This document shows, in pieces, positions 28,789 to 33,473 of a stretch of 64,000 nucleotides of DNA (position 1 is the first letter of the stretch; each line of letters opens with the position of its first letter). A program made the translations under genes and the position numbers. Under the pieces are notes generated by a model. It saw only the letters and a program-made list of their open reading frames with translations, had not been told where the DNA came from and made no database searches. Origin of the DNA: an uncultured bacterium (GTDB lineage Bacteria; Patescibacteriota; Patescibacteriia; CAIQCM01); assembly GCA_963708045.1 (NCBI GenBank), contig OY970181.1:887566-951565 (forward strand), read 5' to 3'.

Positions 28789-28953
28789 AAAGTATTTAAT
28801 TTTGCCTTAAATTAGACGTTTTGTCAACCCTTCAGTAGGGTTATCAACTTCTCTTGTAAAGAACGTTAAAACCTGCTATATTCTATACATAAGAAGTAAT
28901 TCCTCTCGCGTTGGGATACCGCATGGCGTCCCGTTAAAGCGAGGGGTTTTCTT

Positions 28954-29583
28954 TTATGAAAACAGTAACCGCTCGTCAATAATTTTGTCTTTTATAATTT
29001 CATAAAATTCATAATCTCCTCTTTCGTACTTGCGAAATATAGCCCAGGAAATAAAATCAACCGCTTGTAAACCTTTCTCGTCGTGCGAAGCCGCAAGCGA
29101 CATTTCAAATTTACAATCGCGCCTTTTCTTCATCGCTTCGGTTATGTAAGCGATAAAATTATCGCGTAAATTCTTTTTTGTATCCTTTCTGTCAACCACG
29201 AGAAATAGTTGGTTATCGCCGTCAACGCGTTTTGAATTTATCAAACGGTCAAGAATTACGTTTGCCGTGTAGTTATAGAGATAGTTTTTCTGATTTTGCA
29301 AATCAACATAGACCTTTTCTTTATTTAAAATTGTAGTTACTACGGCGATATCTAGCTGTGAAAGCGATTTAAGCACCCTCGTGCGCGTAACATCGTCGCA
29401 ATGATACGCATGAAGTTCTGAAAACTTATGCTTGTGTTTCTTTTTCAAACCATTTTTAACTTTTTTAATTACGCGCTCAAGCAGGCGCGGATCATTCACA
29501 ACAACCAAAGTAAACAAAAACCACTTACTAGATTTCTTAGAAAATCCTAGATCACCGCTTTCATCAAGAAATATATAAGCCAT
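28954..29583 (-). CDS. DUF3800-family protein
   Basis: Starts MAYIFLDESGDLG (DUF3800 N-terminal DESG signature) with a later Q..AVDFISWAI motif. Probable start at the Met preceded by AGGAA. 29 nt downstream of hsdS. Confidence 0.5.
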   Translation of the reverse strand: MAYIFLDESGDLGFSKKSSKWFLFTLVVVNDPRLLERVIKKVKNGLKKKHKHKFSELHAYHCDDVTRTRVLKSLSQLDIAVVTTILNKEKVYVDLQNQKNYLYNYTANVILDRLINSKRVDGDNQLFLVVDRKDTKKNLRDNFIAYITEAMKKRRDCKFEMSLAASHDEKGLQAVDFISWAIFRKYERGDYEFYEIIKDKIIDERLLFS

Positions 29584-29642
29584 ATTCACAATATTCCTGT
29601 CCGGATTAGACATTAGATATTAGGAATTAGATATTCATCGTA

Positions 29643-30851
29643 TTACAGCTCCCCGCTAAACGCCTTTTTGAGAACCGATTTCTTTAATTCTTCCAAATCC
29701 AACAATTTTTGTTTATATAACCCCTCCAGCTTTTTCGTCTGTTCCGATAAGGCGTCAAGCTTTGCAACAATCTTTTTTTGTTGGTGGAGGGATCTTGGAA
29801 ATTGAATAAACACCTCGCGTATCTCTTCCAAGTGAAGATTAGGAACCCCTACCCCTTTTAATCTTTTGTTAAACTGTTTTTTAGCCATAGGTGAATTAAT
29901 AAAATACAACAAAAAATTTGGCAGGATCGCATCTTTAGCACGAATTAACGCCAAACTTACATATATATCAAAAACTAAGTTCCTATCCACCATTGCAGCC
30001 ACTCCAGTCGTACCATTTTTAGCCAACAGGATATCACCCAAGCGAGGCGAAACCCGTTTATGCATTTTCGAGATGTTGTTTTTGGTCAATATATTTAATC
30101 TTTTCCCAATTAATTTTTCCGCTCGTAACATTTCTGAGGATAAAAAAATTATTCCACTATCATAATATGTTGGCGTTTGGTGTGTTCCGTCCGTTATTTT
30201 TTCGGAGATATCGCCCAACCGTTTCTCCTCCCACCCCTCCCCCGGATTAGAAAAGATGCTTTGCAGATACGACTCAAAAAGCTCTTTTGCATTCTGCAAA
30301 TTTTTTTCCGTATTCTTTTTAACCTTCACAATCCCCTCAAACACCTCATCCAAAATTTTTACGATCCGTTGTTGTTCGGGGAGGGGTAAAATTGGAATTT
30401 CAAAATCCTTTAAATCAGTAAATTTTAAATTATTTATATTAGCCCCACTGGAAATTTTTTCCAAATGATCTTTATAAAACGATGAGCTTAAAATATAAAA
30501 AAAATATTTTGAATCAATGCATTCTTTGGGTGTTAATTGACCCATAAATCCACCAAAGGCATATTTGTAATCACCATCAATTAGTGCAATTTTTCCAAGA
30601 TGACTTTTACTACCATTTGCAGTGCATACAATTATCGATCCTCTTCGCACCATTTTATTATCTGGAATCATTATTGTATTGCTTATATATCTCAGGTCGC
30701 TTAAATCTAACAGGCCACTATTTAGATCAATATTATTTGAGCGTAAAACAATATTATCTGAAAAATCTACCTCGTCTTTTTTAGAATAAGTTAGCCCTCT
30801 CGAAAAATCACAAACTTCGCCGAGTTTTTTTGTTTGTAAATTTATTTCCAT
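29643..30851 (-). CDS. hsdS: Type I restriction-modification specificity subunit
   Basis: Two target-recognition domains, each followed by a conserved PLPEQQRIVKILDE / coiled-coil-like motif. 402 aa. Confidence 0.8.
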   Translation of the reverse strand: MEINLQTKKLGEVCDFSRGLTYSKKDEVDFSDNIVLRSNNIDLNSGLLDLSDLRYISNTIMIPDNKMVRRGSIIVCTANGSKSHLGKIALIDGDYKYAFGGFMGQLTPKECIDSKYFFYILSSSFYKDHLEKISSGANINNLKFTDLKDFEIPILPLPEQQRIVKILDEVFEGIVKVKKNTEKNLQNAKELFESYLQSIFSNPGEGWEEKRLGDISEKITDGTHQTPTYYDSGIIFLSSEMLRAEKLIGKRLNILTKNNISKMHKRVSPRLGDILLAKNGTTGVAAMVDRNLVFDIYVSLALIRAKDAILPNFLLYFINSPMAKKQFNKRLKGVGVPNLHLEEIREVFIQFPRSLHQQKKIVAKLDALSEQTKKLEGLYKQKLLDLEELKKSVLKKAFSGEL

Positions 30852-30854
30852 AAT

Positions 30855-31646
30855 TTATTTTAGAAAACCGACCCATTCACTATTCAGATCAAAATAATTA
30901 TATCCATTCTGTGAATCTGATTCTAAGTGGCCAATCCATTCATTATTAATATCAAAAATCATGTAGCCATTTTGTGAATGCTTAATTGCAAACTTTGTTT
31001 GTTCTGCGCTAAAGTCGAAAAACAACAACGAATTTTGTGAATTTTCAAAAATCACAAATTCGTAGGGGGTGCAGTTAAGGTCATAATTATAATAACCAAT
31101 AAAATTTGCGTTAAATCTAGGATTAATTAAATTATTAAATCTTGGATTAATAAGGTTGTTAAATCTAGGATTAATTAAATTATTAAATCTTGGATTAATA
31201 AGGTTGTTAAATCTAGGATTAATTAAATTATTAAATCTTGGATTAATAAGGTTGTTAAATCTAGGATTAATTAAATTATTAAATCTTGGATTAATAAGGT
31301 TGTTAAATCTAGGATTAATTAAATTATTAAATCTTGGATTAATAAGGTTGTTAAATCTAGGGTTTCTATTATTGCTCACTGGCGCTACATCTAAAGTTAA
31401 ATCCAGGAATACGAGAACAGGAATATTGCGACTATCGTTCGTAAAATTTATAAAAATTCTGAGTATGCCAACTTTAAAAAATTGTATTTGTCCAAATACA
31501 AAATTCAATCCTAAATAATTTGCTACACCATTAGCATCTAAAACCTTTATTTTATTAAGAACATCAACAATTATTCCTTTAGGTGTTTTATCAAGTTGAT
31601 TTAACTTATTTTCAAATTTTTCTGTTGCCAATATTTTAATATTCAT
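30855..31646 (-). CDS. repeat protein: RelE/ParE-like N-terminal fold (tentative) + ~13x NPRFNNLI octapeptide repeats + three C-terminal NGYxxFDxNxEWxG (WG-like) repeats
   Basis: Stop codon lies 3 nt from the hsdS start. N-terminal ~90 aa resemble RelE (…KFENKLNQLDKTPKGIIVDVLNKI…KVGILRIFINF…VLVFL). Encoded by perfect 48-bp DNA tandem repeats. Confidence 0.45.
   Translation of the reverse strand: MNIKILATEKFENKLNQLDKTPKGIIVDVLNKIKVLDANGVANYLGLNFVFGQIQFFKVGILRIFINFTNDSRNIPVLVFLDLTLDVAPVSNNRNPRFNNLINPRFNNLINPRFNNLINPRFNNLINPRFNNLINPRFNNLINPRFNNLINPRFNNLINPRFNNLINPRFNNLINPRFNANFIGYYNYDLNCTPYEFVIFENSQNSLLFFDFSAEQTKFAIKHSQNGYMIFDINNEWIGHLESDSQNGYNYFDLNSEWVGFLK
31110..31357. repeat. perfect tandem 48-bp (2 x 24-bp) DNA repeats, ~5 copies, in-frame within a CDS
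   Basis: GTTAAATCTAGGATTAATTAAATTATTAAATCTTGGATTAATAAGGTT repeated head-to-tail at 31110, 31158, 31206, 31254 and 31302. Confidence 0.85.
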
Positions 31647-32017
31647 AAATGTAGGTCAGACATTATGTCTCTCAATGCGTCGTTTCCTTTCCTAATTGAC
31701 TCATTTACCTTTTGAGCCAGTTCTGGAAGACATTGGCTCCTCATATACGCTGTACAATAATCATTGTCCTTAAACTTCTCAATAGATTCATCTATTTGGA
31801 TTTGAAATCTAAAGTAGAAATATATAAAAATACTGGCCAGAATAAGAAAATAAAAAGACTTGGTTTTGTAAAAAGACCCCCAATTCAAAGAATTGTTTAT
31901 GGTTATTTCTGTTACGAAAGCACCGGAAAGTATGCTGAAAATAAAAATACTAAAAATATTTATTATTGTTTTAAAAAGCGGGGATTTTTGTATCTTATCT
32001 TTTAAACAAAGGTGCAT
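31643..32017 (-). CDS. small 2-TM membrane protein, translationally coupled to hsdM
   Basis: Probable start MHLCLKDK. Its ATG lies 1 nt after the hsdM stop. Two hydrophobic helices then a soluble C-terminus. Overlaps the start of the repeat protein (ATGA-type). Confidence 0.4.
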   Translation of the reverse strand: MHLCLKDKIQKSPLFKTIINIFSIFIFSILSGAFVTEITINNSLNWGSFYKTKSFYFLILASIFIYFYFRFQIQIDESIEKFKDNDYCTAYMRSQCLPELAQKVNESIRKGNDALRDIMSDLHL

Positions 32018-32018
32018 A

Positions 32019-33473
32019 TTATAGCCTCGCCATAATACTTTCAATAATTTTTTTTGAATCAACATCTAAAATGACCATATTTTTTAAAACCTCTTTCGGA
32101 TCACGCAAAGCGGCTTCGTCAGCTTTATTCGGATTCTTCACTGATAAATCAAAAGTCGCTTGATCAATGTCCTTAACATTCACACTCCAACTATTGGCGC
32201 TATTGGCTTTGGTTTTTTGTTGGGTGATGAAGTCGGCGAGGTCGGGTTCGTTTAGGGGGTTTCCTTTGCCGAGGTTGCGGTTTAGGTTCAATTGGTAGAA
32301 CCAAACTTTTTTAGTTGGGGCGCCTTTTTCAAAGAAAAGAATTACGGTTTTAACGCCGGCGCCCTGAAAGGTGCCACCGGGGAGGTCTAAAACAGTGTGG
32401 AGGTTGCAGGATTCTAAAAGTAATTTACGCAGGCTGACCGAGGCGTTGTCGATGTTGGAGAGAAAGGTGTTTTTTATGACGATACCGGCGCGGCCGCCGG
32501 CTTTTAACATTTTTATAAAGTGTTGGAGAAATAAAAAAGCGGTTTCGCCGGTTTTAATGGGAAAGTTTTGCTGAAGCTCGGGGCGTTCCTTGCCGCCAAA
32601 GGGCGGGTTAGCTAAAACAATATTGTAGCGATCCTTTTCCATTATATCGGCAAGATTTTCGTTAAGCGTGTTTGTTTTTCTAATATTTGGCGCTTCCACG
32701 CCGTGCAAGATCATATTCATAATGCCAATAATGTATGGCAATGAGATTTTTTCCTTTCCGTATAAAGTTTTCTTTTGAATCGTCGCCCAGTCTTTGGTAG
32801 AAATTTTTTCTCTGTTTTGCGTTAGGTATTGAAACGCTTCAACCAAAAATCCGGCACTGCCGCAGGCGCCGTCGTAAATCGTTTCGCCGACCTTTGGATC
32901 AACAACCTTAACAATCGTTTTAATAAGCGGGCGCGGGGTGTAGTACTGGCCGCCATCTTGGCCGGCGTTGCCCATCCCTTTTATTTTGCTTTCGTATAGG
33001 TGCGACCACTCGTGCTTTTCGGCTTCGGTTTTAAAATGCAAACCATCAATAATGTCCAAAATATTTCGTAGCGCGTAGCCGCTTTGGATTTTATTTTTTA
33101 GTTCGCTAAAAATTTCGCCAATTTTATATTCAACCGTGTCCGAGCTTTCGGAAGCGGCTTTAAACTTTTTTAAGTACGGAAAAAGTTTGTCATTTACAAA
33201 ATCGCGCAAATCATCGCCGGTAAGCGTTTTGTTGTGATCCAATTTTCCGCCAACGGCCTTGGGGCACGCCCAAGCGCTCCAACGGTATTGCGGTTCAAGA
33301 ATGTAATTAAACTTTTTACCCGCCAGTGCCGCTTCGGTCTTTTTTGTTTCCTCCAAGTCATCAAGATACTTTAAAAACAAAATCCAAGAAGTTTGCTCAA
33401 TATAATCAAGCGCTCCGCCAGCATTGTCCGCGCGCAAGATATTATCAATATTTTTTAACGCTTGTTCAAACAT
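32019..33473 (-). CDS. hsdM: Type I restriction-modification DNA methyltransferase subunit (N6-adenine)
   Basis: HsdM N-terminal domain. VLANPPFGG (motif IV NPPF). AdoMet motif DGACGSAGFL. Confidence 0.85.
   Translation of the reverse strand: MFEQALKNIDNILRADNAGGALDYIEQTSWILFLKYLDDLEETKKTEAALAGKKFNYILEPQYRWSAWACPKAVGGKLDHNKTLTGDDLRDFVNDKLFPYLKKFKAASESSDTVEYKIGEIFSELKNKIQSGYALRNILDIIDGLHFKTEAEKHEWSHLYESKIKGMGNAGQDGGQYYTPRPLIKTIVKVVDPKVGETIYDGACGSAGFLVEAFQYLTQNREKISTKDWATIQKKTLYGKEKISLPYIIGIMNMILHGVEAPNIRKTNTLNENLADIMEKDRYNIVLANPPFGGKERPELQQNFPIKTGETAFLFLQHFIKMLKAGGRAGIVIKNTFLSNIDNASVSLRKLLLESCNLHTVLDLPGGTFQGAGVKTVILFFEKGAPTKKVWFYQLNLNRNLGKGNPLNEPDLADFITQQKTKANSANSWSVNVKDIDQATFDLSVKNPNKADEAALRDPKEVLKNMVILDVDSKKIIESIMARL

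Follow-up and report, generated by a model that had tools for sequence, protein, structure and literature searches.

A mobile gene pair encoding a two-transmembrane protein and a RelE/ParE-fold repeat protein within a Type I restriction-modification operon

The stretch of DNA analyzed here comprises 64,000 nucleotides from an uncultured patescibacterium (contig OY970181.1 of assembly GCA_963708045.1, positions 887,566 through 951,565; herein the window). Its minus strand carries, between 26.4 and 33.5 kb, six open reading frames (ORFs) in the order hsdM, a gene for a small protein with two transmembrane (TM) segments (herein 2-TM), a gene for a repeat protein (herein REP), hsdS, a DUF3800 gene, and hsdR. 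We find that 2-TM and REP form a conserved pair that is mobile between genomes and that the N-terminal head of REP has the RelE/ParE fold. Our best reading of the pair is a mobile, membrane-anchored cassette, toxin-antitoxin (TA)-like or serving abortive infection, that rides in the restriction-modification (R-M) operon. To a fuller version, in which an autonomous mobile cassette encoding a membrane-tethered sensor/effector complex was inserted between hsdM and hsdS and DUF3800 arrived as a separate insertion, we give about an even chance.

The genes are tightly packed. The stop codon of hsdM (32019 through 32021) is followed after a single nucleotide by the ATG of 2-TM (32015 through 32017), with a GAGG motif ∼9 nt 5′ of that ATG; homologs favor this start over an ATG at 32065 inside hsdM. 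The resulting gene (31643 through 32017, minus strand; 124 residues), delimited by its ORF and start site, a family alignment, and an AlphaFold2 (AF2) model, ends in a TGA (31643 through 31645) that shares the sequence ATGA with the start codon of REP (31644 through 31646). REP, defined by its ORF and homologs (30855 through 31646, minus strand; 263 residues), is encoded directly 3′ of the 2-TM gene, and its stop codon (30855 through 30857) is separated by 3 nt from the ATG of hsdS at 30851. A preliminary description of this DNA had given the gene order and the spacings from hsdM to hsdS correctly, and had rightly taken the unknown genes to be real, uncharacterized, and translationally coupled in an intact Type I operon.

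Counting the window, 2-TM homologs were collected in 86 loci, 63 of them distinct at 95% amino acid identity; the sources were GTDB genomes, metagenomes at JGI, IMG/VR, and contigs looked up individually. REP lies directly downstream in every distinct locus with enough downstream sequence (58 of 58), usually with the 4-nt ATGA overlap. The hosts range over candidate phyla radiation (CPR)-like metagenome-assembled genomes (MAGs), Gammaproteobacteria, Betaproteobacteria, Bacteroidota, a MAG labeled delta proteobacterium, Acidobacteriota, Verrucomicrobiota, and Planctomycetia; Marinobacter, Chromohalobacter, Pseudomonas tohonis, and Cyclobacterium are among them. Of the 42 distinct loci for which 1 kb or more of upstream sequence is available, 3 have an hsdM gene upstream of the pair (the window, L001, and L008), so linkage to R-M is facultative. 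A role for the pair as a controller of the R-M system was rejected on the same count, hsd linkage being rare.

The pair stands apart from its surroundings in base composition. Its guanine-plus-cytosine (GC) content is below that of the flanking DNA in all seven loci measured, among them the window (0.26 to 0.31 versus 0.44, with a third-position GC of 0.20 for REP and 0.48 for hsdM), P. tohonis (0.35 to 0.38 versus 0.59), and Cyclobacterium (0.29 to 0.30 versus 0.39), and the flanking genes vary between hosts. Defense or mobile genes, counted as R-M, DISARM, Thoeris, CBASS, Lamassu, ABC-3C, HerA, AAA_15/21, integrase, and transposase, lie within ∼5 kb in ∼17 of the ∼25 well-flanked distinct loci, a raw count with no background correction. 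The pair adjoins DISARM DrmA (6e-206) and DrmB (3e-56), Thoeris ThsB (2e-110) with a PLD protein, a CBASS cyclase (1e-133) with PDC-S06, Lamassu LmuB with SIR2 and also HerA, and a CBASS-HORMA-TRIP13 island with an integrase; another neighborhood holds an integrase and a Prim-Pol, and others AAA_15/21 ATPases, a serine recombinase with a methyltransferase, or a DDE transposase. In Cyclobacterium xiamenense (L084, 5310 through 7886) the pair sits directly 3′ of a complete ABC-3C-type conflict system (HNH_2/CTD11, MC7/MC6, and DUF2326) and is followed by a pentapeptide-repeat protein and IS66, with an integrase also present in the ABC-3C neighborhood. On one IMG/VR contig, probably a prophage or an island border, the pair neighbors an integrase and a Dam methylase. 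In this respect the preliminary description is supported for 2-TM and REP, which are tightly linked to each other and often found beside defense systems.

REP has 27 close homologs, and an exhaustive profile search extends the family to 202 representatives at E ≤ 1e-30 and ∼1000 at E ≤ 1e-3; it comprises at least 202 clusters at 50% identity. Neither the full-length protein nor its N- or C-terminal part alone has a significant match in Pfam, NCBIfam, PHROGs, or PADLOC, and against the PADLOC-DB 2.0 defense profiles REP retrieves 0 families at E ≤ 1. An AF2 model built with 25 homologs has a mean predicted local distance difference test (pLDDT) score of 93.4 and a predicted template modeling score of 0.75, and divides the protein into a head, a repeat block, and a small C-terminal domain. 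The protein contains no TM segment (maximum 19-residue hydropathy, 1.29).

The head (residues 1 through 94; 31365 through 31646, minus strand) was assigned by comparing the fold of the AF2 model and by remote profile matches. It belongs by fold to the BECR superfamily, with an α-α-β-β-β(-β) topology that superposes on the structures of RelE, ParE, YoeB, and HigB; the resemblance of residues 1 through 90 to RelE/ParE, originally guessed by eye, thus holds at the level of the fold. It does not hold at the level of the Pfam profile for the window protein, as neither REP nor its residues 1 through 95 match PF05016 even at E ≤ 10. The N-terminal domains of 6 of 25 REP homologs do match PF05016 (best E, 4.4e-5) and the window protein does not, so the relationship to RelE/ParE is a remote one. 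A profile of the family retrieves PfiT, 2khe, and RelE3 at E values of 0.1 to 0.9. Ribosome-dependent mRNases of the RelE type act through catalytic residues that in Escherichia coli RelE are K52, K54, R61, R81, and Y87, or through a C-terminal HR...Y motif. The REP head for the most part retains a β-sheet Arg, which we take to be the equivalent of RelE R61, whereas a Lys/Arg one strand earlier is only partly conserved. D82 is invariant within the last strand (LLLDLT), after which a variable linker without conserved Arg, His, or Tyr runs into the repeats. Apart from K14, the sheet Arg, and D82, the family has no conserved polar residues of catalytic appearance.

The partner, 2-TM, belongs to a family of at least 264 clusters at 90% identity, all annotated as hypothetical and lacking Pfam domains. 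For the window protein, no match was found in Pfam, NCBIfam, PHROGs, the PDB, or PADLOC-DB 2.0 (0 families at E ≤ 1), and a PDB profile search with the family gave chance-level matches alone (vaccinia A6, angiogenin). Hydropathy and charge predict a helical hairpin (∼residues 14 through 36 and 55 through 72) with both termini inside, an 18-residue conserved outer loop (EITxxGxLxWxxFYK), and a charged cytoplasmic tail of 55 residues with the invariant motif DxxYCxAYxxxxCLPE. In the AF2 model (pLDDT 75.8) helices 13 through 38 and 53 through 83 score ∼90 and the tail helices 50 to 70, and most of the invariant residues of the family (D84, Y87, C88, A90, Y91, C96, L97, P98, and E99) fall in this low-confidence tail. 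A tail that is near-invariant yet poorly predicted in the monomer fits a fold that depends on a partner.

Behind the REP head, a repeat finder, unit counts, and the AF2 model define a block of 11 octapeptides (residues 95 through 182; 31101 through 31364, minus strand), rather than the ∼13 first counted: 10 copies of NPRFNNLI and one NPRFNANF. Across phyla the consensus is [N/D]-P-x-x-N-x-x-[I/L]. The block is modeled with a pLDDT of ∼87 to 96 with almost no regular structure as assigned by DSSP, apart from three helical turns of three residues each, and its structure has no match in the PDB or BFVD. In the window protein it carries a net charge of +11. Because the block is basic (+11) or neutral and never acidic, we rejected the idea that it acts as a DNA mimic or against restriction. 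The C-terminal domain (residues 183 through 263; 30858 through 31100, minus strand) is a small all-β domain of eight strands in four hairpins in the AF2 model. The motif NGYxxFDxNxEWxG, thought at first to occur three times, is clear in the last two hairpins and degenerate in the two others; W258 is invariant. A suspected kinship with WG_beta_rep (PF14903) was not upheld, with no match for the window domain at E ≤ 10 and for 0 of 24 family members at E ≤ 1, and a PDB profile search with the domain found nothing.

From these features we infer, as the favored arrangement, a complex tethered to the membrane, with REP as its sensor or regulator and 2-TM as its membrane effector. In this lineage the cassette would be cotranslated with hsdM and hsdS. 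REP would act in the cytoplasm as an apparently nonenzymatic sensor or regulator, and its head may clasp the conserved cytoplasmic tail of 2-TM, as a RelE/ParE toxin clasps the C terminus of its antitoxin; such a clasp would hold REP at the inner membrane. A cue, for example a phage component, could bind to a surface formed by the Asn-Pro block, with its fixed length of 11 repeats, and the β-domain of four hairpins. Perturbation of the complex might then release 2-TM, as a putative effector, to damage the membrane or, alternatively, release the RelE/ParE head as a putative ParE-like noncatalytic toxin. In either case growth would be arrested or the infection aborted, as a backup to the R-M system. 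As to origin, type II TA operons place a small partner first and the toxin second, with overlapping stop and start codons; the small first partner, the overlapping codons, and the RelE/ParE head here suggest descent from such an operon. The preliminary description had spoken of an accessory toxin/sensor module. The RelE fold and a plausible defense-associated accessory role survive from that proposal; the module has two genes and not three, and its linkage to R-M is facultative.

Several points weigh against this picture. The contact between the REP head and the 2-TM tail is itself conjecture, and the toxicity of REP and the pore-forming or toxic activity of 2-TM are putative. REP does not have the makings of a RelE-type ribosome-dependent mRNase, since the linker replaces what we take to be the C-terminal catalytic Arg and Tyr, and because these residues are missing "toxin" can be applied to REP only as a supposition. 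Searches by tblastn with REP and with a Pseudomonas homolog of 2-TM did not turn up the pair on any plasmid in PLSDB or any phage in INPHARED, an absence that is atypical for a classical addiction module. Housekeeping genes are the sole neighbors in six loci, about a quarter of those well flanked (L005, L082, L018, L045, L031, and L056). Finally, the core formed by the repeats and the β-domain also occurs without the RelE head, in proteins of ∼175 residues, with signal peptides or anchors, and in giant proteins, and so has a more general, possibly structural, role. Head-less forms (P0016 and P0018 through P0024, ∼175 residues) start directly at the repeats, and one of these clusters, P0022, holds 180 member sequences. 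In P0221, P0241, P0238, and P0263 the head is swapped for another conserved N-terminal domain of ∼125 residues with no Pfam match and the motif W(T/E)(I/L/V)(I/M)(I/L)(S/A)(S/A)xW(I/L/S)(D/N)(R/S)...(I/V)(T/V)(F/I/V)L. Secreted or anchored forms of the core are P0228, P0289, P0291, P0026, and P0027, and blocks of the [N/D]PxxNxxI type recur in the multicopy proteins P0217 (3048 residues), P0251 (672 residues), and P0276 (402 residues), up to 11 times in the giant one. It is the occurrence of the core without the head, in secreted and giant proteins, that points to the more general role; the head is the part of REP specific to the partnership with 2-TM.

A classical type II TA system offers the opposite polarity: REP would be the toxin, with either a ParE-like, nonenzymatic poison head or a divergent RelE RNase, and 2-TM a membrane-anchored antitoxin that neutralizes it through its cytoplasmic tail, the two forming an addiction module that mainly stabilizes the R-M operon or island. 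Antitoxin-toxin operons typically show this gene order and a 4-nt overlap, the REP head has the appropriate fold, with family members that match PF05016 (ParE_toxin), and the conserved, low-confidence tail of 2-TM resembles antitoxin C termini that fold on binding. Noncatalytic action, moreover, is known from ParE toxins (Gerdes 2025, PMC11980606). Against it, the C-terminal region that both RelE and ParE need for activity is the one replaced by the linker, and 2-TM contains no Pfam DNA-binding domain with which to autoregulate. The putative antitoxin is also more conserved than the toxin head (mean column identity 53 to 64% versus 36%), the reverse of the usual trend in TA systems, and the absence from plasmids counts here too. 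On balance we consider this polarity unlikely.

Alternatively, the cassette may have nothing to do with conflict or defense and instead encode a niche complex at the envelope or membrane, with a structural or adaptor function, its location in variable regions being incidental. The loci with housekeeping neighbors, the core in secreted or anchored proteins and in the 3048-residue protein, and the lack of any visible catalytic signature speak for this explanation. It accounts poorly for the patchy spread over phyla and the atypically low GC, for a pair that abuts at least 10 known defense systems or integrases and has been inserted in three R-M operons, and for a head with a toxin-family fold. 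We give it a small share of the probability and retain the membrane-tethered sensor/effector cassette as the preferred reading.

The DNA of the repeat block raises a separate question, because positions 31110 through 31361 form a 48-bp tandem repeat of 5.2 copies that are 100% identical. REP might on this basis be a contingency gene of variable length, or its repeat length an assembly artifact. Repeat units are closer to each other within a gene (amino acid identity 0.51 to 0.93) than between genes (0.49), which indicates concerted evolution. Nonetheless, 18 of 24 genes have 11 repeats, including genes from isolate genomes whose imperfect units are hence reliably assembled, and protein length stays between 258 and 271 residues across phyla; constancy of copy number and length despite concerted evolution argues for a length constraint and against hypervariability. 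All the forms that have 3 to 9 repeats derive from metagenomes assembled from short reads. Two ∼225-kb contigs from different assemblies carry 3 repeats (L019, 2989 through 3585) and 11 repeats (L020, 1905 through 2693) between flanks that are 100% identical over the 1742 and 1415 nt compared, and this difference is probably assembly collapse rather than a real length polymorphism. As 48 bp is 16 codons, slippage stays in frame and cannot turn the gene off, and a contingency or artifactual origin of the repeat length is very improbable.

The operon that hosts the pair is an intact Type I R-M operon, with hsdM, hsdS, and hsdR each full length and strongly matched in Pfam and PADLOC. On the minus strand, hsdM (32019 through 33473) encodes the methyltransferase (N6_Mtase, 1e-62; PADLOC MTase_I, 7e-156), hsdS (29643 through 30851) the specificity subunit with two target-recognition domains (Methylase_S, 1e-34), and hsdR (26434 through 28788) the restriction subunit (ResIII, EcoEI_R_C, and REase_I, 7e-143). 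A 165-nt spacer parts hsdR from the DUF3800 gene, leaving hsdR without tight coupling to the genes upstream. Elsewhere in the window, two more stretches of low GC (11001 through 13000 and 51001 through 52000; 0.35 to 0.37 versus a window mean of 0.44) may be other acquired segments.

The sixth gene (28954 through 29613, minus strand) encodes a DUF3800 protein (PF12686, E = 1.7e-16; phrog_9243, E = 6e-16). The assignment made in the preliminary description passes the Pfam threshold comfortably (61.7 bits against a cut-off of 21), and the protein carries FLDESGD and LQAVD, instances of the N-terminal DE motif and C-terminal QxxD motif that define the family (PMC7736814). The gap of 29 nt to hsdS is right for the ORF as annotated. 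Translation may instead begin at an ATG at 29583 (MAYIFLDESGD), which has an AGGA upstream, rather than at 29613, and the gap would then be 59 nt. A 7-nt tandem repeat, TCTAATN, is present in ∼4.4 copies (29605 through 29635) in the gap between hsdS and the DUF3800 gene, 5′ of the likelier start at 29583.

The proposal that 2-TM, REP, and DUF3800 make up one accessory module dedicated to R-M could draw on their sharing one operon, the first four genes of which are tightly spaced, and on the repeated association of DUF3800 with defense systems in the literature, where the protein is described as having an RNase H-like fold and as linked to retrons, to Cas12a2/a3 and Cas13-CASK loci, and to structured noncoding RNAs (ncRNAs). 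The neighborhood survey largely refutes it. When the other 62 distinct loci were searched by tblastn with the window DUF3800 protein, none yielded such a gene next to the pair. The operon most closely related to that of the window is in L001, with hsdM and hsdR 73 to 74% identical to their window counterparts (73 to 75% when REP is included); there the slot between hsdS and hsdR holds a different gene (11927 through 12616), encoding an unrelated protein of 229 residues that has a hydrophobic segment at its N terminus and matches no Pfam family. DUF3800 homologs are themselves found on plasmids and in Gordonia phages, the phage homologs being annotated "hypothetical protein", and in the three plasmid loci inspected the gene is solitary with no R-M genes nearby. 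Together with the rarity of hsd linkage for the pair, these observations leave the three-gene module with scarcely any probability; the conserved unit is 2-TM and REP, and DUF3800 is an independent passenger in the hsdS-hsdR slot, unrelated to the pair. That slot looks like an exchangeable landing site, and the operon illustrates how the hsdM-hsdS and hsdS-hsdR junctions serve as independent landing slots for passenger genes.

The spacer between DUF3800 and hsdR (28789 through 28953, minus strand) is predicted to fold into three hairpins, with a minimum free energy of −43.8 kcal/mol and a z-score of −4.03; 0 of 200 shuffled sequences fold as well. It contains a σ70-like site, TTGACA-17-CAAAAT, at 28827 through 28799. 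Structured ncRNA motifs, DUF3800-I to XI, are known to neighbor DUF3800 genes, and an Rfam scan of 28.3 to 33.8 kb found no DUF3800-associated or other RNA family. Judged from sequence, the spacer may be the promoter and leader of hsdR, or a DUF3800-associated RNA.

Among described systems, the closest published analog of the pair is ToxM/ToxR, of which the pair is not a member. In ToxM, a BECR domain at the N terminus is followed by a TM segment, an extracellular region, and a domain at the C terminus, and the antitoxin is a ribbon-helix-helix (RHH) or helix-turn-helix (HTH) protein (Gerdes 2025, mBio, PMC11980606); ToxM/ToxR was described there as the first possible membrane-associated type II TA system. 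A literature search for octapeptide-repeat or TM-antitoxin RelE systems returned that study as the only relevant one. Each system is an operon of two genes in which the small partner comes first; in both, the downstream protein begins with a cytoplasmic BECR domain and continues through a long nonglobular stretch to a structured C-terminal domain; and for both a membrane-associated complex is predicted and a defense role proposed. The differences are substantial. ToxM carries the TM segment itself and its C-terminal part is extracellular, whereas REP has none and the TM segments are in its partner; the antitoxin ToxR is soluble and binds DNA as an RHH/HTH protein, whereas 2-TM is a membrane protein without a DNA-binding domain; and the middle region of ToxM is disordered, in contrast to the ordered 11-repeat block of REP. 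Compared with RelBE and ParDE, the window REP has no significant Pfam match, lacks the catalytic C-terminal residues, and has ∼170 extra residues fused to the head, its partner is a two-TM protein, and the pair has not been found on plasmids. Cami1, a CARF-RelE ribosome-dependent RNase ancillary to CRISPR (PDB: 8phb), keeps RelE catalysis and senses cyclic oligoadenylate through its CARF domain; REP has neither a CARF domain nor the catalytic motif.

In joining a small membrane protein to a multidomain partner in the cytoplasm, and in often lying beside defense genes, the pair resembles abortive-infection pairs with a small TM effector or sensor that reside in defense islands (RexAB, Kiwa KwaAB, the 2TM protein of retron Ec48, and the TM effectors of CBASS and Pycsar), but it shows no sequence or profile similarity to them (0 PADLOC matches). 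As a putative passenger conflict module that shares transcription with an hsd operon, it recalls prrC of EcoprrI, rloC, tvrAT, and embedded PIN toxins, although 2-TM and REP are unrelated to all of these. prrC and rloC are the classical accessory nucleases of Type I loci, and PrrC is functionally coupled to its R-M partner; for the present pair, hsd linkage in so few loci makes a specific coupling to R-M unlikely. The tvrAT genes are a Phd-Doc TA pair embedded in the Type I locus SpnIV (PMC6265443), and PIN toxins are likewise embedded in Type I loci (PMC5499597).

The idea of a three-gene module specific to R-M is thereby corrected to a two-gene pair and a DUF3800 passenger. 2-TM and REP are two protein families that no Pfam, NCBIfam, or PADLOC model covers and that are obligately paired in many phyla. 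The cassette they make up is uncharacterized and phylogenetically widespread, a variant of the two-gene modules of the RelE/ParE type in which the repeat architecture is novel. The 11-copy [N/D]PxxNxx[I/L] block, predicted to be ordered without regular secondary structure, is attractive for structural study. A bolder proposal, which we regard as possible rather than probable, is that the pair is a new and widespread anti-phage or abortive-infection system in which a catalytically inert RelE/ParE fold serves as a clamp on the tail of a 2-TM effector/sensor, and in which a fixed 11-turn Asn-Pro octapeptide solenoid, representing a new fold class, and the four-hairpin domain detect a cue of infection. 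If functional in defense, the cassette would extend the RelE/ParE world by a membrane-coupled member, a kind for which ToxMR is so far the sole proposed example, and would provide a case of a toxin fold used as an adaptor.

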